Shown piece by piece: positions 11,010 through 63,813 of a DNA stretch of 64,000 nt. The DNA comes from an uncultured delta proteobacterium. GTDB lineage: Bacteria > Desulfobacterota > Syntrophobacteria > Syntrophobacterales > Syntrophobacteraceae. The stretch spans positions 46,435 through 110,434 of the forward strand of contig CAWEHK010000017.1 of assembly GCA_963808625.1 (NCBI GenBank), in the 5' to 3' direction. The notes under the pieces are model-generated. The model searched no databases. It was not told where the DNA came from and saw nothing but the letters and a program-made list of their open reading frames with translations. Numbering within the stretch: position 1 is the first letter of the stretch; each line of letters starts with the position of its first letter. The position numbers and the translations under genes are program-made.

Positions 11010-14000
11010 TTACCGCTTGGCTCTTGCTCTTTTCGGTTTGTCCGTTTTCGGCTCTTCATAAAGCTCTTCCAGGTCGTGGGCGATGGCGATGGAGCGATCG
11101 GTCTTGCACTTCTCGCGAACCCGGTCCGGCCAGATGCTGTAGGCCAGGTGCGCCCAGTCGTATTCGCCGGCTTCGAGCTTCTCCCAGCACGCCTTCAAAT
11201 CCTTCTGCCACTTGGGCAGGCGGAACAGTTTCCAGAGCGGGCTGGCGGTGATCAGCACGCCGTCGTTCAGGTTCGGCCGGTAGGGAAGTTGGGCGACCCG
11301 CAAGAGCTCGTCACGGAATTCCTTGAGTTCCTGCTGCAGCTTCTGGTGCCTTTCAAGCTGGTCCCGCTGTTTGGCGGTTCCGCCTTGAAGCACTTCTCCT
11401 CGCAGGCGCTCGATGTCCTGGTTCACTTCTCAAGCTTGGGCTTCACGAAGTCGTTCACGCACTGGAACAGCGTCTGGTCGGTCAGGCGGTGGTAGTAGAT
11501 CCAGAGCGTATAGATCCGGAGCGGTGGAGAGCGGCCAGTAGATGGGCGCTTTCCGCCGGCTCTTGGAGTAGCGCTTCAGGTGGTCGGCGAAAGAAGCCGG
11601 CGGGCTTGCGGAAATAGTCGCGCAGGCTACACCCCGAGGATTTCGCAGGCTTCCTGCTCGATGGCCTGGGCCCGTTCACCCCAGAGAAGTTCGAGCACTT
11701 CGCGCACTCGGCGGACGATGTCCTCAGGGTGCGTCTGCGTTGCGTCGCCGTCCGAGTCATCGAGCAAGATGCCGCTCCAGGTGATCCGCAGCGGGTATTC
11801 TTCATCGGGAATGGTTGGTCTTGAGACCGACCTTCCGGGGGCAGGGTAATTGCGTTTGGCCGCGCCCGGAGCCATTCTTCGCTGACGATCCGGCCGGGTT
11901 TGGCTGGAAGGCCGTCGGGGGCCGCGAGCATACCTGGGGGCAAACGGGAAGTGCATGGGAGAAGGATCTGACAATTTGGGTGCGAGTAATGGATCTATAG
12001 CGATGCGGGCGTCCCCAACACCCGAAGACGATGCCTACTATTGTTGATATTTCGCTGTGTGCTGCAAACCACTTACATCCGAAGCCAAATCAACGTCACA
12101 TACAGGGGATTCGACCTTAGGCTGTCTTATCCGAAAAGAATCAATCTCTGCTCGCTTTGGCTGGAAAACTTTGTATGTACAGATTGATTCCTCATGACAA
12201 CACATCTCTGCTTCAAGGCATACTTCGCGTGATGAATCAACTAGACGATTGATGAATGATGCATTATCCAAAATTCCAATTCCTGATCGAATAATTGAAA
12301 ACAGCGATTGAGTCTCATCAAGACGCTGAGCATCTCGAAGCGTATCTATTGCCGACTCAACCAGTGCTCTACATTTCTCCATATTTGACAATGGATGGTA
12401 TGGTAAGAGGTTGACGTAGCCAGAATACTTATGTTGTCCAGAATATATTTATTGAGGGAGAATCTGACCAAAGGTGTATTGAGAAGGGCAAGTGCATCCA
12501 ATGCTCTATTTTTTTCTCTAATCGGAATTGATTGGCCTTCGACTTGGTGAAAATATGATTGCGTGGTAGGACATGAGTCAAAAACTCACCTCTCTTCCCC
12601 AAAGCAAATACCCGGCAGCAACTATACCCGATTCGGATTACAGTGGCGCTGTCTTTCGGAAGAGATTCAGGAGGGACATCAGCAAGGACGCAATCATGAA
12701 GTGTTGTGCAGTATGGTGCAAATCCCGACCCATTAAACATTCTCGCCACAAATCCCATAGACGTTGGGCTCGAAATTTCCCACCACAGGCGGAAGTGCTT
12801 ATCGGCTTTCAGCGCATGGCCTTGGTTTGCTTTCAGTCCAGAACGTTCCAGGGACGGACATTCCATAAAAGCAACTATCAAAAATTCGGGAAAGTCATAT
12901 CCGACGACAGCGTTTGGAAGATGTTGAAAGGATGAACCTTTTTCACAGAAAGTTCTGTCTTTTTCCAGTCCACTGCAAAAAGCACAAATTGAATCCAGAA
13001 TGTAGAGAACCTTGCTGTCAGCATCGACTTCCCTGGAATCGATAAAAACCCCTCTATTTGAAGGAGGTTGATGATTCAAAATGGAAGTTGTGACTTCGAC
13101 ATTAGCATCGAGCACTCCCCATCCAAGGTCTGCCATTGCGCTGAGGCGATTATCTAAATAATGCGGTCCTGCGAAAATCCTCATATGTGCTCTTAACGAT
13201 TGCCGTTCTGTCGTAAATAGCACCAACCGCTCCCTTGGGGTGAGACATTTGGTAACCTATTTCAAGGAAGGAACAGAGTATATTTTTGTTCCATGTCGGA
13301 TAGGTGCGGGCGAAATAATCTGATAAGTGAGAAGATACTTCACCAAACGGCGGATTCATCAGCACCACATCGTACTTCTTCCGACAGAGATCGATGAACG
13401 CAAATCCCTGCGCTGCATCTTCCGCAAAGAGCTTGCGTTGGTAGCCTTTGCCGTTAGCTAGCCTTTTCGGCAAAATGCTTCAATGCTTCCAGCACCCAGC
13501 CTTCTAGCTTGATCCCAGAATTCTTCCTTTTTGATTTCCTGCAGGGCCATGCGGAGTTCGAGCTGCCTCGGCGGTTGTCGGTCAGGCCACATGTGCAGCT
13601 GACCGACGGTTGTCCGCGCCGGACATCTTCCCATTCCTTCCTAACTCTCTCGATGGCACTCGCGAAGCTCTTCCTCGATCTTAAGGAGTGATCCCGCTTC
13701 GCCGGCAAGCTGCATTTTGTCCCAGACTTCCCGGACCAATTCGCCCACAATCCGCTGCTCGCCCCGGAAGGAGCCGATGAATTCCTCCAGGAGGTCCTTC
13801 TCTCCCGGCATGGGTTCGGCGCAAACGACATTGGCCCGGGTGATGCGTGGGCGCTCCGCAGGTTTCAGTCCCAGCTTCTGGTAGGAGTCGCTGCACTCTC
13901 AGCCAAAGCGAGAGGCCGGCAATCTGGCAGGCGCGCGGGTCGATATCGATGCCGTGGATGTTGTGGCGCAGGATGAGCTCCGGAACTCGCTTCAGGAAAT

Positions 14001-15096
14001 CTTCTTTGGTGCGGCAGACCTCGCGCAGATCCGGCATGAGCTCTGGATAGCGGTCCCAGGCTTCCTCATAGATGTGCTCATAGAGGTCAAAGGCATACAG
14101 GCCGAAGTGCATGGAGCCGCAGGCCGGGTCCAACATGCGGATCTCCCGCGGGTCTTTCAAAGGGCGATGTGCGATGTAAACGGGTTCCTTGAGCAGTTCT
14201 TCCTGCGTCTTCTCCGCCGTCTCTTCTTTATCGGCTGGGGGAGCTTCTTCACCTTCTGCCAGAAAGATCTCATTGGGCCGCCGGACCAGGTAGCGGCATT
14301 CCTCCTTGAGGCGCGTCTCGCCTTTGGTCATTTCATACCAGATGCGCCCCAGGGTGTTGTCGGTCAGGAATTCCACCACGTAGCGCGGGGTGAAAAACTG
14401 GTTGCGAACCGCCAGTTCCCGGCTGTTCCGGGGAGCCGCCGAAGCCTTGCGCATGGCTTCCCGCTCTTCCTTGGAGTTGAAATACTGGTAGATCCAGCCG
14501 ATGGCCTCGTCTTCTTTCCAGACCTCTTGCAGTTCGGCATCGTCCAGGACCGTCAATACTTCCAACAGCGCTGGCTCTCTCGGGAAGAGCAGGCCAAAGG
14601 GCGAGAAGTGATCGAAAAGCAGGCCAAGATCCAGGGATATTTCATCGAAGAGGCACTGCAGAAAAATCCGGTAGCGCTCGTATGCGTCGCCCAGGCTGCT
14701 CCCGGCCGTGGTGCAGTAGACTTGAAAACCGCGGGATTGGAAGCCGTTTCGAATGCATTCCTGCACAATGCCGCGCTCTTCGCACATGCGGAGCGCTGCC
14801 AGGCGATTCAAGACGGTGAACGCCTGCTCCCGGATAACGCGGTCGATGGCTTCCCGTGCGGCTTTCCTGTCTGTGGATTGCCCATCCGCCAGGTGGTCGA
14901 TGCGTTCGCGCAAGAGCGAGGCAATGGTGTGATGCTCATCGTCGAGGTGGGTCAGCGAGGTGAGGCCGGCCATTTCGCCGGTCGGCTGTATCCCGTAGAG
15001 ACTCTGCAGCTGCCCGGTGAATTCGTCGGTCAGGATGCGGCGGCAGGAGGCCACCATCTTTTGCAGCTTATTGCGAGTTGAAGAGTCAAATGGCAT
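11010..15096 (-). CDS. pglX: BREX PglX adenine DNA methyltransferase (several frameshifts)
   Basis: EQAFTVLNRLAALRMCE, IGWIYQYF, RNQFFTPRYVVEFLTDNTLGR, LDPACGSMHF (motif I), YDVVLMNPPF (motif IV), and C-terminal YRPNLNDGVLITASPLW...GEYDWAHLA. Confidence 0.92.
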
Positions 15097-15168
15097 ATGG
15101 GATCTTCTCCGTTCTCTCTTGGATTCCTGATCATTGGACTCGCGCGAGTCATGGTCTGAGTGTCTCTT

Positions 15169-15252
15169 ACCGCAGAGATCAGCAGATTGGACGCCTGATG
15201 ATAAATCCCATATACATACATTCTCTGCGCATCTCAGCGTTCTCTGGCGGTG
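15169..15252. repeat. Empty ACCGCAGAG-type inverted-repeat element between brxC and pglX
   Basis: ACCGCAGAGATCAGCAGA ... CTCTGCGCATCTCAGCGTTCTCTGGCGGT; same family as 18981 and 33676. Confidence 0.65.
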
Positions 15253-15326
15253 AGTTCATGTCTTTCCACTTCCTGCTGGTCGGTCTCGCGCGTAAACTCA
15301 ATTACTCTTCTTACGGTATGGCCCGT

Positions 15327-18300
15327 TCAGGCGCCATTTTCCTCTGCTATTTTCCACTCGACTCTAATTGTAGTTGATTTCCCCAGTTTCTTCTTGAGGT
15401 TTGACAACTCGCGAATGATGGCGTCAATCTCATCGGCAGTGGAAAACACCACAGGCAAAGCCGGGAAGGGGATCAAGAGCTCCGTAGGCGTCTCAACCCC
15501 CTCTTCGCCGCCGTTGGTTGTTATGCTCGTTTGGATTTCATTTTCAATAAGCTCCAATTGCTGCATCAGGCTGTAATGATCGTTGATCACTTTCTGCATG
15601 CCGGCAAGATCGGCTGCCGCTTCAATCTTTAAGGCATCCAACCGGCCGGCGATGCGAAGACGGTCCTCCCCGCTCAACTGCCCCCATTCATCCGCCTGCT
15701 GGAGTCGTTCCTTTTCCTTCTCAAGCCATTCCTGCTCTTTTTGCAGGAGTTTTGATGCCAGCTGCTTGATTTTGCTGTCGAGCGCCGTCAGGTGGGTCTG
15801 AAACTCAGGGATGGCATCAAAAAAGTCTTTTCGTTCCACGAGTTCCTGCAGACTCAGGCGGGCCATGTCGGTTTCATCGATCAACTGGCCGGGAATCCCG
15901 AAGGCGGGCAGCGACGGGATCGCAACGAGGTATCGGTTGACTTTCCGAATGATGGCTTCAATCCCGTTATCAAAGGCCTTCTTCACCTTGCTCGCCCAGA
16001 TCAGGTTGTCATGGAGTGGGCAGGCCTCGCCTCCCAGCCTGTGGGTGGCATCCGAGGCATCCCCTTTCAGGATTTCGGTAATCCTGTCCTGAACACTCTG
16101 CGCGATATCGACGCCAGGGAGCTCCAGATTCTTGAGCTGAGCACAAAGGGGCGCAAAGTCCTGTTGAAAATCCGGGAAGTGCCTCATGACCCCCTTGCTG
16201 ATATCTTCCTCCAGGGGCAGGACGTTTTCCCCGGTCAGCTCCAGCAGCCTTTCCGATGCCCGCAGCCGCATTTCGGGTGAAGGTTTGCCTTCGGACCGCA
16301 AGGCGACGCCGATCTTATTGAAGCTCGTGGTGTTGCTCAGGACCTGGACAGCGGTGTCGCCCCGGACGGTGATATCCTGGCCGCTGACTCGCAGCTTGAT
16401 CTCCCCGCCAACCAGAAGGGCGGCCACAAGATAGCGCGTGGTGTCCTTGGACCAGCCATAAGGCGAGGCATAGAAGTCGTCCAGAATTTTCTTGCCGTCC
16501 GTCTGGCCGTACTTGTCGAGATAGTCTTTGATCGAAACGAGCGCCTTGTGCCCGAGATCGATCCCTGTGGTCTTTCCGATCTTCTTCACCAGCTTCAGCG
16601 GGTCGTCTTTGGATGCGATCTTGTCCAGATGATCCGTCTTGAGAAAGCGTTCGGCGACAGCAGATTCCACCTGGACAGGGGCTTCGGAATATTTTTCAAA
16701 TACGTCCTCGGCGACTTTTTTCAGGAATTTTTTGGCGGCTTCCTTGAGCTCGGAGTCCAGTTCGGAAACCGGTTTGGGTTGCCCGCGAAAGATGAATGAG
16801 CCTTTGGAGAGTCCCTTGACCAGAAGGGTTCCGAGCTCCGTAGTCTTGGTCTCGGATCGTTGAAGCTGACCGTTGAGGTAGTCTGCAACCTCTTTTTCGG
16901 CGGCCTTGTTGCGATACTGATTGTATATCGATCGGCATCTGAAGATTTCGATGAGGGTGTCATCCACTTCGGGATCTTCTCGCCCGAGGAGATAGATTAT
17001 CTTGCGATTGGCGCCCTGTTGGGATTCCAGGACGGCATTCCGGCGCCGCCCTTCATAAGTCGCATCCGAAATGAACTCAAGGTGCGTTTGGATCTCTTCT
17101 TTGTCACCCAGAAGGGAGACCGTCAATCCATTGCTCACGATTTTGATCCCGCAGTTGACGGTCCGGGTGCCCGCAAGCTGGGTGTTGGGCAGAGGCGTGA
17201 ACATCTCCCGCAATTTGGCATTGAGGATGTTGCGAAGGTCAATCGCTCCGGGAATGATCTTGCGGCGCTCGTTTTCCAGGATAGTGACCGCCTCGCTCAT
17301 GAACCGGAGGCTCCCGTCCACTTCGCTGAGAGGGATGGCCTGCTCCTTCAGGAGATCCTCCACGGCTTCTTTGACTTGAGGAAGCAGGGAAGCGCTCTCC
17401 ACCGAAGGATGCATCAACGCAGCCAGGTTTTCCCGGCTGACCGGGAAATCTTCCAGCACTTGCAGAACGGCAATCGATTTCGCAGCGTGAGCATGGAGAG
17501 AGTCTGCGCCAAAAATGGTCTGCACCTTTTCCACGCCCTCAACGATGTGGCGGAACGACCGCTGGATGTCTCTGCGCAGGGTGTCATAGAGCACCACCGT
17601 GGTCGCCAAAGTCCCGGTTTCCTGATCGGCCAGCAGGGGTTCTCCGGGCCGGACGCCGCTCTGGTCCACCAGAACGTCCTGGACGACCTTGATGGCGGAT
17701 CGCAGCCCAATGCCGCCGCTCGTTTTGGCGAGGCGGCTCAGGAGCTCCAGGAGGATGTCGAAATGCTGCGGGAGAAAAGGATAGAGATCGCAAAAGGTCT
17801 TTTGTTCCAGATCGGATTTGTAGTAGCGGGTGTTCGCCAGTTGGGTCGCATAGCGCAGGACATGACCCTTGGAATCAAAAAGAGCCTTCAGCGTGTCCTG
17901 GCCCTGTTTTGATTTGCCGAGGAGGCGCTTGATGCAGATTTCCTTGATGTCACTGGCTTCCAGATCAATAGGAACGGGAAACCGGTCTTTGAGCTTGAAG
18001 AGCTTGGCCGTGTTCATGTGTGCCCGCGGATCATCTTCCGTCAGCGTTTGCTGAGCGGTGGCAATGATCCAGGCGTGGCCCCCGCCGATATTTCTGATGT
18101 TCTTGGCGAGCCCATCCAGGTTCAAAATCAGCGCATCACGAGCCATCACATACTGGCCCACCTCATCGAGGATGAAGAGGATGTTTTGCTTCCCGGAACG
18201 GCGGCGAATCAGGTCGATCATGCTCCGAACCCGATCATCTTCTTTTTCGGCCTCATCCACGGTGATTTCGTTGAAGGCTTTCGCATCGGGCCAGATGTCG

Positions 18301-18956
18301 GGGTAGAACTCCGAAGCCAGGCGGGAAGCAAACGTTTTAACCACGAGGGGTTGATTGTGGACCTCCTGCCAGGACGCTCCCTTGGCGAGCTCGGCGATTC
18401 TCGCCTCAAACTGCGCCATCTTGCCGTCTTTTTCCAGCATGTATTCGAGGTAAGCGATTTTCTTGTCGCGCGAATAACCGGCCCACTGCATGACTTTGGA
18501 ATAGAGTACACTCGAGATTTCCATCATAGCGGCGCCGGCAAGCTGTTCGCTGGCGAGATCGAGCATGACCACCGCCGTGGAGTGCTTCTTGGCAACCGTG
18601 GCAATTCGTGCCCGCAGGGTTTGCGACGTCAGGCGACTTTGCATCCACTCCAGGAAGGGCTTGCCGTCGAGCGTTCTGCCGGGGTCCAGGGCAAACCCCA
18701 GATACTTGGTGAAAGAACTCTTCCCGGAACCGTAAAAGCCGGACACCCACACCCCGATTTCGTGGCCTCCCCCTCCGCCCATGCCTTCATCGAGCATATC
18801 GAGGAGCCGTTCGAGACTGGTTTCAATGCTCTCGGTGGCGACGTACTCTGTGATTTCCTGTCGCAGGCGCTCGGGCTCGGTCGAATCAAAGGTGATGACT
18901 TTTTCGATCCGGCGATCGATGTTTTTACTGGGATCAAAGAGCTCCCGAATATACAT
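15327..18956 (-). CDS. brxC: BREX P-loop ATPase BrxC
   Basis: Intact 1209 aa. GVWVSGFYGSGKSSF (Walker A), FILDEVGQY (Walker B), KDRF, YPFLP and PYGWS motifs. Confidence 0.95.
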   Translation of the reverse strand: MYIRELFDPSKNIDRRIEKVITFDSTEPERLRQEITEYVATESIETSLERLLDMLDEGMGGGGGHEIGVWVSGFYGSGKSSFTKYLGFALDPGRTLDGKPFLEWMQSRLTSQTLRARIATVAKKHSTAVVMLDLASEQLAGAAMMEISSVLYSKVMQWAGYSRDKKIAYLEYMLEKDGKMAQFEARIAELAKGASWQEVHNQPLVVKTFASRLASEFYPDIWPDAKAFNEITVDEAEKEDDRVRSMIDLIRRRSGKQNILFILDEVGQYVMARDALILNLDGLAKNIRNIGGGHAWIIATAQQTLTEDDPRAHMNTAKLFKLKDRFPVPIDLEASDIKEICIKRLLGKSKQGQDTLKALFDSKGHVLRYATQLANTRYYKSDLEQKTFCDLYPFLPQHFDILLELLSRLAKTSGGIGLRSAIKVVQDVLVDQSGVRPGEPLLADQETGTLATTVVLYDTLRRDIQRSFRHIVEGVEKVQTIFGADSLHAHAAKSIAVLQVLEDFPVSRENLAALMHPSVESASLLPQVKEAVEDLLKEQAIPLSEVDGSLRFMSEAVTILENERRKIIPGAIDLRNILNAKLREMFTPLPNTQLAGTRTVNCGIKIVSNGLTVSLLGDKEEIQTHLEFISDATYEGRRRNAVLESQQGANRKIIYLLGREDPEVDDTLIEIFRCRSIYNQYRNKAAEKEVADYLNGQLQRSETKTTELGTLLVKGLSKGSFIFRGQPKPVSELDSELKEAAKKFLKKVAEDVFEKYSEAPVQVESAVAERFLKTDHLDKIASKDDPLKLVKKIGKTTGIDLGHKALVSIKDYLDKYGQTDGKKILDDFYASPYGWSKDTTRYLVAALLVGGEIKLRVSGQDITVRGDTAVQVLSNTTSFNKIGVALRSEGKPSPEMRLRASERLLELTGENVLPLEEDISKGVMRHFPDFQQDFAPLCAQLKNLELPGVDIAQSVQDRITEILKGDASDATHRLGGEACPLHDNLIWASKVKKAFDNGIEAIIRKVNRYLVAIPSLPAFGIPGQLIDETDMARLSLQELVERKDFFDAIPEFQTHLTALDSKIKQLASKLLQKEQEWLEKEKERLQQADEWGQLSGEDRLRIAGRLDALKIEAAADLAGMQKVINDHYSLMQQLELIENEIQTSITTNGGEEGVETPTELLIPFPALPVVFSTADEIDAIIRELSNLKKKLGKSTTIRVEWKIAEENGA

Positions 18957-18980
18957 GGTGAGTTTCCTCTCCTCTTTTTT

Positions 18981-19260
18981 ACCGCAGAGAGCGCAGAGAA
19001 CGCAGAGTTTAGTCTTCTTTCAGATTGTTCACCAATCGCCGTAGTCCAGCCGAATGCTGTACGCCAGTGACTTTATTCAAGTAGAGCTTTCTGTCCTCTC
19101 CACTTTGCCCTCTGCTCAACTCATAGCAAGACTGCCTCATAGGTCGACTCAAGCAAACCTGGACCGAGCTCCCGATGAACGGCTATAGCCGCCCCAATGA
19201 TGGACTCAGTACTTTATTCAAGTCTCCTGTCATCTCTGCGTCCTCTGCGAGCTCTGCGGT
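18981..19260. mobile_element. Inverted-repeat element carrying a GxxExxY gene relic
   Basis: Left arm ACCGCAGAGAGCGCAGAGAACGCAGAG (18981-19007); right arm CTCTGCGTCCTCTGCGAGCTCTGCGGT (19234-19260). Confidence 0.7.
19009..19221 (-). pseudogene. GxxExxY family protein, internally deleted and frameshifted
   Basis: Manual translation gives [28 protein letters not shown] (19210-19127) and C-terminal GLRRLVNNLKED*. Missing from the ORF track. Confidence 0.85.
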
Positions 19261-19281
19261 GAATTTCAAGCACGTTTTCCG

Positions 19282-19857
19282 CTAACCGCCAATGTGGATA
19301 GAGCGGTAATTGCCGTCTTCCGGATAAATCCCCAAGAACTTCAATGTCGATTTCCCCGTTCGCTTGCCGGGGTAGAGAAAAACCGTTGGGACTTTGAAAC
19401 GGCCCTGAAGCTTCTGCTCAATGGTTCCGACCCGCAGGTATGGGTGGAGAGCCTCAAGGTCCGTCACCAAAAGAAGCGCATGCGGCTGGCCGCTTAGCTC
19501 TTCCAGCTTCTCCTGGAGCGCCATCTTGAGCGAGTCGCCTTCCATCAATGCTTCACGCAGTGTGGCATTGATGGCTTCAAAATCCAGGGGAGTTTCAGCC
19601 TCACTTTCCAGCCAGATGTCACGAAATTCATGATTGCCGAAAATTTGGTGCACGGCTTCTGCCATGGAAAACTTGTCAACCGCCCAGCCATCAAGCTTGA
19701 GCCTTGCTGTCCATTGCTTCAACCGGCGCTTGACCTCCAGCATTTCTTCCGGTCGAAATACGAGGTAGAAAACCGGGTCGTCCCCGGTATTGCTGAGTGA
19801 TCTCCCGGAGTGGAGCCGCTCCCGCAATTCCTCAAAGCTCGCTTGCAGCGATGGCAT
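19282..19857 (-). CDS. brxB: BREX BrxB (DUF1788)
   Basis: DPVFYLVFRP...LLLVTDLEALHPYLRVGTIE...VFLYPG...LKFLGIYPEDGNYRS; positioned between brxA and brxC. Confidence 0.88.
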   Translation of the reverse strand: MPSLQASFEELRERLHSGRSLSNTGDDPVFYLVFRPEEMLEVKRRLKQWTARLKLDGWAVDKFSMAEAVHQIFGNHEFRDIWLESEAETPLDFEAINATLREALMEGDSLKMALQEKLEELSGQPHALLLVTDLEALHPYLRVGTIEQKLQGRFKVPTVFLYPGKRTGKSTLKFLGIYPEDGNYRSIHIGG

Positions 19858-20626
19858 CGAGACATTCCTCCATGGATTTGTACTTCCAGGCGATTCTCAG
19901 AAGCTCACCGGAGTACTGAACGATGAAATGGCCTGCAAAGGAGACCTTCTCCAGTTCACGAACTACATTGTGCCTCTCTATCCCAAAGAGAGCCCAATCG
20001 GGGTGCTCCATGACAGCGCTATCTCCGAGCCCCCGGAAGTGGAGTTCATGAGAGAGATAAAGCGTAGTGATAGGTGTAATCACGAAGGGCAAGATCTCCC
20101 TTTCTCCTTTGTGAATCGGTGTCACCAGATGAAAATCCTCGAGGCAGCCAAGGAGGTATCCTGCCACTCTGAAGTTCATGGTAGGGGACCAGCGGGGTGC
20201 AATACATCCCTTGTTGACCGCCGATTCAAGGAAATCCAGCGCGTCCTCCTTTTTTAGATGGGTTGCCCCGGAAGCGTACTTATGCCAGTAAACTTCTCGT
20301 ATGAAGTCGTATAAAACCAGGTTGGCTCTAGCCGTGTAAATGAGAAATATTTGACCCAGCTGCTTTGTGGGAACTGAATGCGAGAGCAAGCGTTTCAGGT
20401 AAAGCGCGGGGCGACCGTCATCAACCAGGTACCGAGCGGCGAAGGCGCGATTCACCAGGTCTTTGGTCCTCAATGCGGTTGCCTTGGAAAGAACGCCCTT
20501 TTTCAATACCTCCGACACCAGTTCAGACGCGCCCATATGAGGCCGCCAGATATCGAATATCGCCAGGGTTTCGGGAATCAATCCCTGGCCCTTGGCTAAT
20601 GCCGTCGTGTAGACCTTTCTCCCCAT
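19832..20626 (-). CDS. brxA: BREX BrxA (DUF1819)
   Basis: YTTALAKGQGLIPETL, YTARANLVLYDFIREVYW, HPDWALFG; overlaps the brxB start. Confidence 0.88.
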   Translation of the reverse strand: MGRKVYTTALAKGQGLIPETLAIFDIWRPHMGASELVSEVLKKGVLSKATALRTKDLVNRAFAARYLVDDGRPALYLKRLLSHSVPTKQLGQIFLIYTARANLVLYDFIREVYWHKYASGATHLKKEDALDFLESAVNKGCIAPRWSPTMNFRVAGYLLGCLEDFHLVTPIHKGEREILPFVITPITTLYLSHELHFRGLGDSAVMEHPDWALFGIERHNVVRELEKVSFAGHFIVQYSGELLRIAWKYKSMEECLDAIAASEL

Positions 20627-20627
20627 G

Positions 20628-21119
20628 CTATTCCATCGTAAGATACGGGAAGGTCTGTTTTCCCGAGCCGAAAGCATCGAAATAATGCTTGGCCATCTCT
20701 TCGATCGTGAAGGTGCTCAAGAGGTTCTTCAGCGTTCCCACTTGAACCGGTCCTTCCGGGGCATCGATGGTGCTCACGGCCAGTTGTTGGAGAATGCCAA
20801 GAGCATTATCCTTCGTTTCAATGCCGGCCAAAAACCCTGCCGGGTCAGCATTGAGCAACTCCAGATGGACTTTTTCCTCCACTGTCGCAGGCAGCCGAAA
20901 CAGGTGAAAAACCCGGCCCCTGCCAATGCGCCGGTCATGAAGTTGCTTGGCCGCTTCGGTTACTGAATGAACACCGGCTGAAAAAGCGGAACGAGGGAAG
21001 TTGATCTCCAGGAATTTCTGTCCGGTCTTGCCCAGAAAGGAAGTATCCCACCAGTTGAACTGGTCCTTTTCCCCCAGATAACCCACAAGGACGCGCAATT
21101 GCAGCAATTTGTCAATCAA
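20628..21119 (-). CDS. brxE: BrxE family protein
   Basis: LRVLVGYLGEKDQFNWWDTSFL...FPRS...AAKQLHD.RIG.G.VFHLFRLP..VEE...FPY; TTG start after a GGAGG Shine-Dalgarno. Confidence 0.85.
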   Translation of the reverse strand: MIDKLLQLRVLVGYLGEKDQFNWWDTSFLGKTGQKFLEINFPRSAFSAGVHSVTEAAKQLHDRRIGRGRVFHLFRLPATVEEKVHLELLNADPAGFLAGIETKDNALGILQQLAVSTIDAPEGPVQVGTLKNLLSTFTIEEMAKHYFDAFGSGKQTFPYLTME

Positions 21120-21614: not shown

Positions 21615-22756
21615 ATGGTCTCTCCCTGGAAGCGCACCAAGGCCATCCTGCTGCTCGAGGATGGCACCATTTTTCGCGGTTATGCCTTTGCGGGACAAGG
21701 GCGGGCCCTGGGCGAAGTGGTCTTTAACACGAGCATGACGGGCTATCAGGAGGTCCTCACCGATCCCTCCTATAAGGGGCAGATGGTCGCCATGACCTAT
21801 CCTCTGACCGGGACCTACGGCATTAACGACGAAGACATGGAATCCGCAACGATCCGGGTGGAAGCCTTTATCGTGAAGGAGTATCAGGATTTCGCCAGCA
21901 ACTGGAGAAGCACCAGGACCCTTGCTGATTTTCTCAACGACCACCACAAGATCGGGATCGAAGGCCTCGACACCCGGGCACTGACCCGCCACATTCGGGT
22001 GGCCGGCGCCATGCGGGGGATCATTGCCACGGACACGGACGACGTTGCCGCCCTGATGGAAGAGGTTCAGGCCTTTCCCGGGCTGAACGGCATCGATCTC
22101 GTCCAGTACGTTACCTGCGCGCAGCCCTACCGGTGGTGCCATGGACCCAAGTTGGCCCGGATTCTCTTGCCTGGTCTTCGGGGCAGGCGGGGTTCCGGGT
22201 GGCGGCCCTGGACTGCGGGATCAAGTACAACATCCTGCGCCTGCTCGAACGAGCCGGATGTCAGGTCATCGTGTTCCCGGCGCATACTCCGGCTGAACAG
22301 ATCCTGGCGACCGATCCCGACGGTGTCTTCCTTTCCAATGGTCCGGGCGATCCGGCGGCGCTGCACCAGGTCATTGAGACGGTGCGGGGGCTTCTGGGAA
22401 AGCGGCCGGTCTTTGGGATCTGTCTCGGTCACCAGGTAATGGGACTGGCCCTGGGCGGAAAAACGTTCAAACTCAAGTTCGGCCATCGCGGGGCGAACCA
22501 GCCCGTCAAGGACCTGACTACCGAAAGAGTTGAGATCACTTCTCAGAACCACGGGTACTGCGTCGATATCGACTCGCTGGCCCACGTCCCCGTGCGCCTC
22601 ACCCACCTCAACCTCAACGACAACACGCTGGAAGGAATGGAACATCTGGAAATCCCCGCATTCAGCGTGCAGTACCATCCCGAAGCTTCACCCGGCCCTC
22701 ATGACGCTGCCTACCTCTTTGATCGCTTTATCGACCTGATGAAGCGGAACCAGTAG
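21615..22756 (+). CDS. carA: Carbamoyl-phosphate synthase small subunit (one frameshift near 22140)
   Basis: [50 protein letters not shown]. Confidence 0.97.
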
Positions 22757-22772
22757 CAAGGAACACCCTTTC

Positions 22773-25996
<3,224 letters not shown>

Positions 25997-26009
<13 letters not shown>

Positions 26010-26145
26010 TGAGTGAGAGAGAACGAGTGATGAGTGACGAGTGATGAGTGACGAGTGATGAGTGACGAGTGACGGGAGTGACGAGTGATGAGTGATGAGT
26101 GACGAGTGGTGAGTGACGAGTGATGAGTAATGAGTGGTGAGTGAG
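25997..26145 (+). repeat. Tandem heptamer array (GAGTGAY) x ~20
   Basis: Counted 20 units of GAGTGAT/GAGTGAC and variants with two small interruptions; begins inside the last carB codons and supplies its TGA. Confidence 0.95.
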
Positions 26146-26176
26146 ATGACACGGACGATGAGAGAAGAACGGGGTA

Positions 26177-26554
26177 ATGACTGAAAGGATCAGCAGGTTC
26201 GAGGACCTGATTGCATGGCAGAAGGCGCGAAGTCTCACTGCAAGTGTTTACAGGATTACAACAGGAGGGCTTTTCGCCAAGGATTTGGGGCTGAAGGACC
26301 AGATCCGGCGGGCAGCGGTGTCAGCCATGTCAAACATTGCCGAGGGCTTTGAACGCGGAACACCAACTGAATTCCACCGCTTCCTTACGATTGCTAAGGC
26401 TTCGTGTGGAGAGCTTCGGTCTCAACTTTATGTAGCATTGGATGTGGGTTACTTAACCGAGGAAATATTCGGCGCCTTGCTTGCGCAAGCAGACGAAGTG
26501 GCACGGATCATCGGGGGCTTGCGCATTTCAGCCAAGCGACGTCGGGAGGCATAG
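26177..26554 (+). CDS. Four-helix-bundle protein (23S rRNA IVP / bAvd-like fold family)
   Basis: [56 protein letters not shown]. Confidence 0.93.
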
Positions 26555-26563
26555 AGAACTCTT

Positions 26564-28123
26564 ATGAACCAAACCCCTTCACTCACTACCAGTCACCCAG
26601 CGCCTGCTCCTGAAGTCCCTCCGCTCATCACTCATCACTCATCACTCATCACTCGTCACTCGTCACTCGTTCCTCCCCACTCATCACTCGCTCCTTTCAT
26701 CCCCCGAAAACGCGAAGAATGCGGTATTTTTGGGGTTTACGGGAACTCCGAGGCGGCCAAGCTGACCTATTTCGGGCTTTATGCCCTCCAGCACCGGGGC
26801 CAGGAAAGCGCGGGTATCGCGGTTTCCGACGGTCAGCAGGTCAGAGAATACAAGCATATGGGACTGGTGCACGATATTTTCAAGGAAGACATCCTTCAGG
26901 CCCTGAAGGGACATCTGGCGATCGGCCATGTCCGCTATTCGACGACGGGTTCTTCCCTGCTGGCAAATGCTCAGCCGTTCGGCGTCTTCCTTGGCGATGA
27001 ATATTACGGGATTGCGCATAACGGCAATCTTGTCAACGCGTTTCAGTTACGTCGAGAGCTGGAGGCAAAGGGCGCCATTTTCCAGTCCACCATGGATACC
27101 GAGGTGATCATTCACCTCATGGCCAGGCGGCTGCGTAATGGTCTCGAGGAAGCCCTGATTGAAGCTCTGAATCAGGTGCAGGGGGCCTATTCACTCGTCA
27201 TGTGCACGAAGGATAAGCTGATCGGGATAAGGGACCCCCGGGGCTTTCGTCCTCTCTGCCTTGGTGAGTTAGACGGCAGTTACGTGCTCGCTTCCGAAAC
27301 CTGTGCCTTCGATCTGATTGAGGCGACCTATATCCGCGATCTCGACCCGGGTGAGATTCTCATCATCGACGGCAGCGGCTTGCGGTCTCTGCACCCTTTT
27401 CCCAAGGCCCGACCTGCCCACTGCATCTTCGAATTCATCTACTTCGCCCGGCCCGATAGCAGCATCTTCGGACAAAACGTCTACTTGTTCCGGAAGCGAT
27501 TGGGACACCTGATGGCGCGGGAAAATCAGTCCCTCGCCGCCGACCTGGTGATGCCCTTTCCCGATTCCGGAAACTACGCGGCGCTGGGGTTTGCCGAGGC
27601 TTCCAGGATACCGTTCGAAATGGGTGTAATCAGAAACCATTATGTGGGAAGGACCTTCATTCAGCCGAGCCAGGCGATGCGGGATTTTGGGGTGCGAGTC
27701 AAGCTGAATCCGGTTCGGGAGTTGCTGCAAGACAAACGGGTTGTTCTCGTGGAAGACTCCATTATCCGGGGCACGACTACCCGCACCCGCCTTCGCGCCC
27801 TTCGTAAAGCCGGGGCAAAAGAAGTCCACATGCTGGTGAGCTGCCCGCCGCACCGCTTCCCGTGCCCCTATGGCATTGACTTCTCCACCAAAGGCGAGCT
27901 CATTGCCGCATCCCATTCGGTGGAGGAAATTCGGCAATTCATTGGCCTCGACTCGCTCAGTTATCTGAGTCTCGAGGGACTGCTTGAGGGCGCGGGTGCA
28001 GCGAGGGACAATCACCATTTCTGCCTCGCCTGCTTTACCGGCAACTACCCGGTCGCCTTCGAAGGGCAGGTGCGAAAGAACTGTTTCGAAAATCGCGGGC
28101 AAGATTCGCTGAACGTATGCTGA
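26564..28123 (+). CDS. purF: Amidophosphoribosyltransferase with an extended propeptide
   Basis: REECGIFG, LQHRGQESAGI, IGHVRYSTTG, AHNGNL, VEDSIIRGTT, CLACFTG (Fe-S type). Confidence 0.97.
   Translation: MNQTPSLTTSHPAPAPEVPPLITHHSSLITRHSSLVPPHSSLAPFIPRKREECGIFGVYGNSEAAKLTYFGLYALQHRGQESAGIAVSDGQQVREYKHMGLVHDIFKEDILQALKGHLAIGHVRYSTTGSSLLANAQPFGVFLGDEYYGIAHNGNLVNAFQLRRELEAKGAIFQSTMDTEVIIHLMARRLRNGLEEALIEALNQVQGAYSLVMCTKDKLIGIRDPRGFRPLCLGELDGSYVLASETCAFDLIEATYIRDLDPGEILIIDGSGLRSLHPFPKARPAHCIFEFIYFARPDSSIFGQNVYLFRKRLGHLMARENQSLAADLVMPFPDSGNYAALGFAEASRIPFEMGVIRNHYVGRTFIQPSQAMRDFGVRVKLNPVRELLQDKRVVLVEDSIIRGTTTRTRLRALRKAGAKEVHMLVSCPPHRFPCPYGIDFSTKGELIAASHSVEEIRQFIGLDSLSYLSLEGLLEGAGAARDNHHFCLACFTGNYPVAFEGQVRKNCFENRGQDSLNVC
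26627..26689 (-). repeat. Reverse-complement heptamer array (RTCACTC) x 9, inside the purF 5' coding region
   Basis: ATCACTC x4, GTCACTC x2, GTTCCTC, CCCACTC, ATCACTC; complementary to the 25997-26145 array. Confidence 0.92.
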
Positions 28124-33675: not shown

Positions 33676-33747
33676 CACCGCAGAGACGCAGAGGACGCAG
33701 AAGCTCCATTTTTGAGCTTCCTCTGTGCTCTCTGCGTCTCTGCGGTG
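33676..33747. repeat. Empty ACCGCAGAG-type inverted-repeat element
   Basis: CACCGCAGAGACGCAGAGGACGCAG ... CTCTGTGCTCTCTGCGTCTCTGCGGTG. Confidence 0.8.
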
Positions 33748-34163
33748 AATAAAAAAGTGAAAGATCTCAACCTAAACAAGTATAATTGAAATCAGGACAT
33801 CACTAGGGGGAGGAAGCAGGGCGATTGCATGCAGGGCAAACGCACGAAATCATGAGGGCCCAAGGAGAGTGAGGAGGTCGTCGATGTTCCAACCAGCCTT
33901 ATTCCAGCTCGCCAGTTAATGCCATTCAAAGATCGTTTTCGATTCCTGCTGAAAACCCTTCCCTTTCATCTCGGCTTCGGTCTGTGGTTTCTGATCCCCG
34001 CGTTAAGCATTATTTTCTCTCCTTCGCACCCATTGCGAGCCACGCTGTATCATGTCGACCGGCAAAAGAGAGAGGTCTGTTCGACCAACCGTCGTATCGA
34101 TTGAAAAACATTCCAAGCGGTGAGACAGAGAGTTGTTCAATTTGCTGTCATTCGTTTTTCTGC

Positions 34164-51200: not shown

Positions 51201-51285
51201 AACCACGAAGGACACGAAGATCACGAAGAAGAGCACAGAGATTATTGTGAAAGCATTCCTTCATGTTCTTCGTGCTCTTCGTCGT
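51201..51285. repeat. Empty AACCACGAAG-type inverted-repeat element
   Basis: AACCACGAAGGACACGAAGATCACGAAG ... CTTCATGTTCTTCGTGCTCTTCGTCGT; near-identical copy at 63738. Confidence 0.75.
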
Positions 51286-63713: not shown

Positions 63714-63813
63714 GTATAGGAATTTGCATTTTTTCTTAACCACGAAGGACACGAAGATCACGAAGAAGAGCACAGGGATTATTGTGAAAGCATTCCTTCG
63801 TGCTCTTCATGGT
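63714..63813. repeat. Duplicate of 51178-51285, including the AACCACGAAG-type inverted-repeat element
   Basis: GTATAGGAATTTGC...AACCACGAAGGACACGAAGATCACGAAGAAGAGCACAG.GATTATTGTGAAAGCATTCCTTC in both copies. Confidence 0.85.

Follow-up and report, generated by a model that had tools for sequence, protein, structure and literature searches.

Among the closest described systems are the ORF-bearing intervening sequences (IVSs) of 23S rRNA genes, of which the Coxiella example has tandem heptamers upstream of its ORF and is excised by RNase III, according to the available part of the source (PMC4990558). In the accessible text of a CPR preprint, the PF05635 family to which such ORFs belong was reported only inside rRNA genes. 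A protein of related fold, Avd, is needed by its reverse transcriptase; the RNA to which it binds lies next to the avd gene itself, with flipped-out RNA bases going into crevices between protomers, as described in the accessible preprint text (bioRxiv 10.1101/2023.10.23.563531). Polar intergenic heptamer arrays have been recorded in Xanthomonas and Nostoc (PMC4692102) and in Beggiatoaceae (PMC4679880), and their polarity after stop codons and before start codons is known from Xanthomonas (PMC4692102). In the portions available, both papers leave these arrays unexplained and propose G-quadruplex or translational-regulator roles. A binder of the heptamer arrays was sought by MacGregor in 2015 (PMC4679880), the available text of which does not name the PF05635 family, and a word search of the available texts of both papers found no 4HB (four-helix-bundle) or S23 partner named. 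In the literature covered, which consisted of main texts largely from outside subscription journals, PF05635 genes with flanking arrays outside rRNA were not found.

The locus described here lies between carB and purF on the forward strand of the analyzed window, a stretch of 64,000 nucleotides, and not in an rRNA gene. A C-terminal carB ORF piece encoding the CPSase and MGS domains (24303..26009) ends in a TGA (26007-26009) that is itself supplied by the left repeat array. This G-rich arm of ~21 GAGTGAY units begins in the last four carB codons (25997..26144; period 7, 20.9 copies, consensus GAGTGAT by TRF). It is followed by a 4HB gene of 125 amino acids on the same strand as the operon (26177..26554), and then by a purF propeptide of 52 codons (26564..26719; 19-26 codons in most of the relatives shown). 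The right arm, ~9 C-rich units forming the reverse complement of the left arm (26624..26689; period 7, 9.4 copies, consensus CTCATCA by TRF), is contained in frame within purF codons 21-42, and is not intergenic. The mature PurF begins at the catalytic Cys53 (26720..28123) and matches TIGR01134 with 523 bits over residues 53-496. Folding of the arm-gene-arm region as RNA gave a z of -8.5 versus 20 shuffles, with positions 26003-26071 pairing with 26622-26690 in a stem of 65 bp whose longest perfect helix is 31 bp, and these complementary termini enclose the 4HB ORF. TRF, profile scores, and the RNA fold confirmed what the initial annotation had described, a GAGTGAY array, a 4HB gene, and an inverse array able to form a stem of about this length.

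A variant 10-mer in the left arm (26021..26030) has its copy in the right arm (26663-26672), and the two copies pair together, which may perhaps favor one pairing register. Among the genome's 421 arrays it is common only to these two arms, where chance sharing of a private variant is expected for ~6% of long same-family array pairs; the same test was positive in only one of five intact cassettes and thus did not generalize. Elsewhere in the window, carA and carB (21615-26009) and pglX (12429-15096) are each spread over several frames, and these splits are probably assembly indels, not true breaks. A BREX cluster is located 5' of carAB (12429-21119), with BrxC scoring 1452 bits.

The 4HB ORF scored 119 bits on PF05635 (cut-off 33.8), which was its only Pfam match, and 109 bits on TIGR02436 (cut-off 24); it did not match an HUH (Y1) transposase. 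The protein model (AF2, pLDDT 83) was all-helical with four helices. Its closest structure was the five-chain 2GSC (Xcc0516; E 2.5e-15, TM 0.76-0.78, rmsd 1.8), and the Avd fold was more remote (TM ~0.68, identity 13-15%). The kinship with 23S rRNA IVS ORFs and Avd, recognized in the initial annotation, was thus borne out by the PF05635 score and the fold match. By analogy with 2GSC and 2RLD, which both have five chains, we infer that the 4HB protein forms a pentameric ring. Contigs from public sequencing runs contained two 151-nt pieces on the 4HB gene from RNA library X13 (0 and 4 differences), with DNA carry-over possible, and one 241-nt piece, possibly DNA, from run X9, whose RNA type is a guess.

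Heptamer arrays were identified by TRF at 421 places in this genome, which is 85% complete and whose gene calls were home-made and crude. The G-rich strand started at most 15 nt from a same-strand stop codon in 150 arrays versus 16 for the C-rich strand, and an end 0-40 nt upstream of a start codon was seen 67 times for C-rich arrays versus 21. The idea that arrays abut stop codons merely by containing them was rejected, as 46 of 189 stop-free arrays start at most 10 nt from a stop. Six near-complete 4HB genes, 17-49% identical, were found with six different unit families, and their units cover 284 of the 421 arrays within one mismatch; the remaining 137 match no 4HB gene found in this 85% complete genome. 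There is thus roughly one gene for each major unit family, next to hundreds of arrays without a gene at stop and start codons. The gene studied here is a single copy, and 86 arrays differ from its unit by at most one mismatch; a low-copy gene is thus flanked by a repeat family abundant genome-wide. Of the six genes, one has a left arm and a frameshifted end, and the other five lie between inverted arms. In each of these five, both arms belong to the same family, compared to one of 12 gene-less stop/start pairs and a chance expectation of 10.8%. That the arrays might occur genome-wide independently of the gene, a possibility raised at the outset, holds in so far as a 4HB remnant lies beside 13 of the 421 arrays and none beside the other 408, but fails in that the unit family still ties arrays to genes. 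A broken 4HB remnant by an AAGGGTG-family array (G000:C6:21051-21343) represents a seventh gene-unit pairing.

The best 80 of 519 relatives in GTDB constituted clade A, and 74 of them had full flanks. At least one arm was present at 55-59 and both arms at 26-30 of these 74 genes, the ranges reflecting two window widths, compared to 3 and 2 of 74 at control positions 1 kb away; 15-19 of the 74 had no array at the threshold used. Inverted arrays beside homologs are therefore typical, as had been anticipated. A YGAGK core, defined after clade A was seen, occurred in 52 of 64 array-bearing loci among the 80 close homologs, across phyla, and the four-fold sites of these homologs agreed at 702 of 2680 positions (26%), indicating saturation of silent sites. 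The core was found in none of 54 array-bearing loci of the C39 clade (80 loci, kept from 140) and none of seven of the C37 clade (eight loci), the two outside clades compared. In the C39 clade, the GGATTTC unit of this genome was matched within two mismatches at 12 of 54 loci, this clade being more varied than predicted. Scans of viral sequences with the C29 and C50 paralogs yielded no relatives.

At the genome level, a YGAGK x4 pattern was present in 22 of 35 genomes of the family with a strong PF05635 match versus 4 of 26 without one (61 genomes), and within genus g10 in 9 of 11 versus 2 of 8. The corresponding p = 0.0002 is overstated because related genomes are not independent, and a backwards-pattern control does not provide a null since it matches other real unit families too. 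Five congeners (G001, G002, G004, G006, and G007) have YGAGK arrays with no close homolog (over 60%) of this 4HB gene. The clade-to-unit match fits the initial proposal of a multivalent array for the gene's own oligomeric protein.

The explanation to which we lean, with modest confidence and by analogy, is a pair similar to RAYT and REP, in which one ring protein would bind each repeat family and help it to be maintained and to spread at gene boundaries. Because repeat type tracks protein lineage, the protein likely recognizes its own repeat, and it seems somewhat probable that each 4HB lineage binds its own 7-base unit. In a first step, five subunits would assemble into a ring, as in Xcc0516 and Avd, and its five equal inter-subunit pockets would take up YGAGK-NN units one after another along the G-rich arm in single-stranded form, either as RNA or as DNA at a fork. 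In a second step, the ring would hold or bridge arrays for host replication or repair, and slippage, template switching, or ectopic recombination would copy units to new gene ends and mirror one arm into the other, with the gene itself being rarely mobile. Template switching occurs at quasi-palindromes, and the paired-position variant shared by both arms is as fold-back copying predicts. In-frame growth of the array would be cheap in the disposable propeptide of PurF, and the carB-4HB-purF mRNA would probably be read through and not cut. Spreading is the weakest part of this explanation, since the 4HB protein is without known catalytic activity.

The junction between carB and purF in relatives bears directly on how the locus was assembled. 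Among the best 30 purF loci from 41 genomes searched, carB was located upstream of purF in 29, and the 4HB gene was present in this genome alone, so that junctions lacking the cassette do exist, as had been foreseen. The congeners G007, G001, and G006 have neither the 4HB gene nor the left arm, but in each of them a short array of C-rich heptamers, with its own unit variant, occupies the equivalent propeptide position. Degenerate C-rich units at 26579..26603 are similar to the array at that place in G007, and the last two 4HB codons, the stop, and a 9-nt spacer (26546..26563) look like the end of carB and the spacer after it in these three gene-less congeners. In G003, a short G-rich array is found at the carB stop. 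The right arm thus likely arose separately from the 4HB gene, inside the purF propeptide. Position 26564 is the only ATG, GTG, or TTG before Cys53 in the purF ORF, and the purF start codon is likely host-derived, as the beginning of the propeptide (MNQTPSLT) resembles that of G012 (MNRRSLLT). PurF propeptides are removed autocatalytically (PMC7056826, available part), and the same likely applies here, which makes the propeptide a tolerant site for an array. An environmental contig (96% identical, one contig at depth 3) confirmed the junction from the 4HB gene to purF, and its right arm is 36 nt shorter, in frame.

These observations weigh on the best surviving alternative, which we consider unlikely, namely that arm, gene, and arm form a minimal mobile cassette inserting as a block, and that every solo array is a relic from which the gene and often one arm were lost, long inverted repeats being unstable. 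Orthologous sites in the genus can be read as a decay series of such cassettes. The C37 cassette is common to G000, G003, and G001 with a divergence like that of its flanks, and at the same site G004 has the right arm only, G006 has neither arm nor gene, and a different palindrome is found in G007. The C39 cassette is likewise common to two congeners with flank-like divergence, and its site is full in G004, reduced to a short left arm in G001, and cleanly empty in G007. A left arm alone remains at the C29 site in G007, and the C51 site has both arms without the gene in G000 versus a full cassette in G002. Furthermore, in clade A the first unit of 37 of 42 left arms lies at most 25 nt from an upstream same-strand stop (control, 2), and the genome-wide polarity after stops and before starts is expected from symmetric cassettes. 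This polarity follows from cassette symmetry alone too, so that no orientation-biased insertion is needed. The variant 10-mer common to both arms also suits block insertion, and the PurF tree, in which G000 falls weakly outside G007, G001, and G006 (support 85/69), is compatible with gain and loss alike and weakly allows a single loss in those three.

However, the likely host-derived start codon of purF separates the 4HB gene from the right arm, which argues against a unit arriving as one block. The self-contained contiguous cassette of the initial annotation is therefore not supported, the congeners having the right arm alone. The genome contains no multi-copy or near-identical 4HB genes, as judged from the six genes above. 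Few arrays have a 4HB remnant beside them, and gene-less pairs have no conserved spacer in common, the only sharing among 55 near inverted pairs being due to other repeats and to entries that overlap. No target-site duplication was found at the clean C39 site in G007, and the 6-nt direct repeat at the carB-purF locus is ambiguous as one. Examples among the sites listed also show the same stop codon bearing different unit families in different congeners, and the 4HB gene of the full G002 cassette has 74% DNA identity to a G000 gene located elsewhere, so that one lineage occupies two loci. So the 4HB genes are old and seldom move, with arrays turning over fast. In G023 of the same family, 26 PF05635 matches were found; several are truncated, and many lie close together on two contigs.

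A second alternative, which we regard as improbable, assigns the 4HB protein the part of an Avd-like cofactor, whereby a reverse transcriptase borrowed in trans would copy cassette or array RNA to DNA and resident arrays would serve as priming or homing sites. The fold shared with Avd, the dependence of the reverse transcriptase on Avd and the binding of Avd to RNA next to its own gene (available preprint text), and the location of homologous genes mostly downstream of a same-strand gene are in keeping with it. There are also four reverse transcriptase matches in the genome (on C36, C43, C38, and C54, with none on C17). Nevertheless, the only reverse transcriptase near a 4HB-like gene belongs to the C43 pair, in which Avd lacks arrays, and the similarity of the 4HB protein to Avd is remote, at the identity given above. 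The C43 pair itself (G000:C43:93708-95586), an Avd-like gene adjoining a reverse transcriptase, is likely a DGR, and heptamer arrays are absent around it.

Equally improbable in our assessment is an mRNA intervening sequence, as put forward in the initial annotation, in which RNase III would cut the stem and free the loop with the gene, as happens in 23S rRNA. The perfect 31-bp helix within the 65-bp stem and the excision of the Coxiella IVS by RNase III (PMC4990558, available part) suit this explanation. So does the 23S rRNA gene of the congener G002, where a 447-nt 4HB element (L148, L149) with heptamer-like arms replaces a 15-nt stem-loop of G000. Since the gene-plus-array design recurs in the 23S rRNA of this congener, the rRNA IVSs would seem to be one special case of it. 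In the operon, however, a cut at the stem would part the coding body of purF from its only start codon, which would stay behind in the loop, and ribosomes on the propeptide would be expected to open the right arm. The host ORF frame is open across a nested 4HB gene in 4 of 170 loci, which suggests read-through of the cassette. These four genes (L146 on G006:C1, L270, L272, and L273) are nested in another frame of a long open host ORF, and L146 and L270, the two scanned, score best as PglX of BREX. An empty ortholog of one PglX-nested 4HB site is present in this same window at ~13950-14260. Among the joints listed from the public-run contigs, none linked host sequence of carB with purF over the whole 4HB gene. 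Arm-to-arm joints in these contigs had short sides, probably came from repeats of other organisms, and were set aside as evidence. Partial cleavage of the stem may still act as a decay signal.

It is very improbable that slippage made the arrays as ordinary simple repeats collecting in intergenic gaps, with a gene caught between two of them by chance, for although 421 arrays changing fast between congeners and an in-frame length change in a close strain would agree with this, it is largely refuted by the same-family arms of five of five bracketed genes against a 10.8% chance for each, the rarity of arrays at controls 1 kb away, and the match of clade to unit with a clade-specific core across phyla.

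A parallel system of inverted 8-10-mer arrays occurs in the same window (18983-19258, 33679-33760, 51204-51282, and 63741-63767), and a broken GxxExxY (PF13366) remnant lies between inverted arms at 18983-19258. Each of the genome's four near-complete GxxExxY genes has its own inverted 9-10-mer arrays on both sides. There are 63 tight gene-less pairs of the 8-10-mer system, and the copies at 51204 and 63741 have a common spacer, like REPINs. The GxxExxY nuclease and its 9-mers thus run in parallel with the 4HB system in one genome.

Returning to the reading modeled on RAYT and REP, a wider and tentative extension is that such rings are genomic symbionts, non-catalytic, one for each 7-base family, which would read the repeat base by base while host replication and repair write the arrays and mirror the arms. 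If this were true, the bacterial excess of heptamer repeats would be explained, and the rRNA IVSs with S23p would be only those copies that landed in 23S rRNA. Two questions would then be joined, the role of the large PF05635 family and the reason why many bacteria bear hundreds of polar 7-base arrays. The locus itself provides a constraint, as its right arm is translated as part of a propeptide whose start codon is likely host-derived, so that bracketing can apparently arise on site, with no need to assume RNA excision. Should the recognition code prove real, small rings that prefer different 7-base units could be used as modular nucleic-acid binders.

Compared with known systems, the locus shares with the ORF-bearing 23S IVSs of Coxiella and Leptospira a PF05635 gene (S23p) in the loop of terminal inverted arms and an element size of ~450-700 nt (PMC4990558, available part). 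It differs from them in its position in an mRNA operon, in its long arms of heptamer arrays, in a right arm translated within purF with excision unlikely, and in the hundreds of gene-less arrays of the same families. The target duplication and near-identical copies of an insertion sequence or MITE were not found. With DGR Avd (4DWL, 8UB7/8) the protein shares the four-helix-bundle fold, Avd being a pentamer that forms a nucleic-acid-binding barrel and has pockets for bases at the subunit interfaces, as far as the available source describes it. However, no reverse transcriptase, template, or variable repeat is present at the carB-purF locus, the identity to Avd is low, and this genome's own Avd has no arrays. 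The arrays resemble those in the available texts of PMC4692102 and PMC4679880 in having the G-rich strand after stops, the opposite polarity before starts, and convergent pairs, whereas the GAGTGAY unit has no G-tracts. In the RAYT/REP(IN) system, as presented in the available part of PMC5581495, a low-copy and often vertically inherited gene with its own flanking repeat is likewise accompanied by many dispersed extragenic copies; further papers on such systems are PMC3116915 and PMC3337134. RAYT belongs to the HUH transposases and REPs are palindromic, whereas the 4HB protein has no known catalytic motif, and its units, unlike REPINs, are tandem non-palindromic 7-mers in which no conserved spacer was found. 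By this comparison, the element appears to work most like RAYT and REP.
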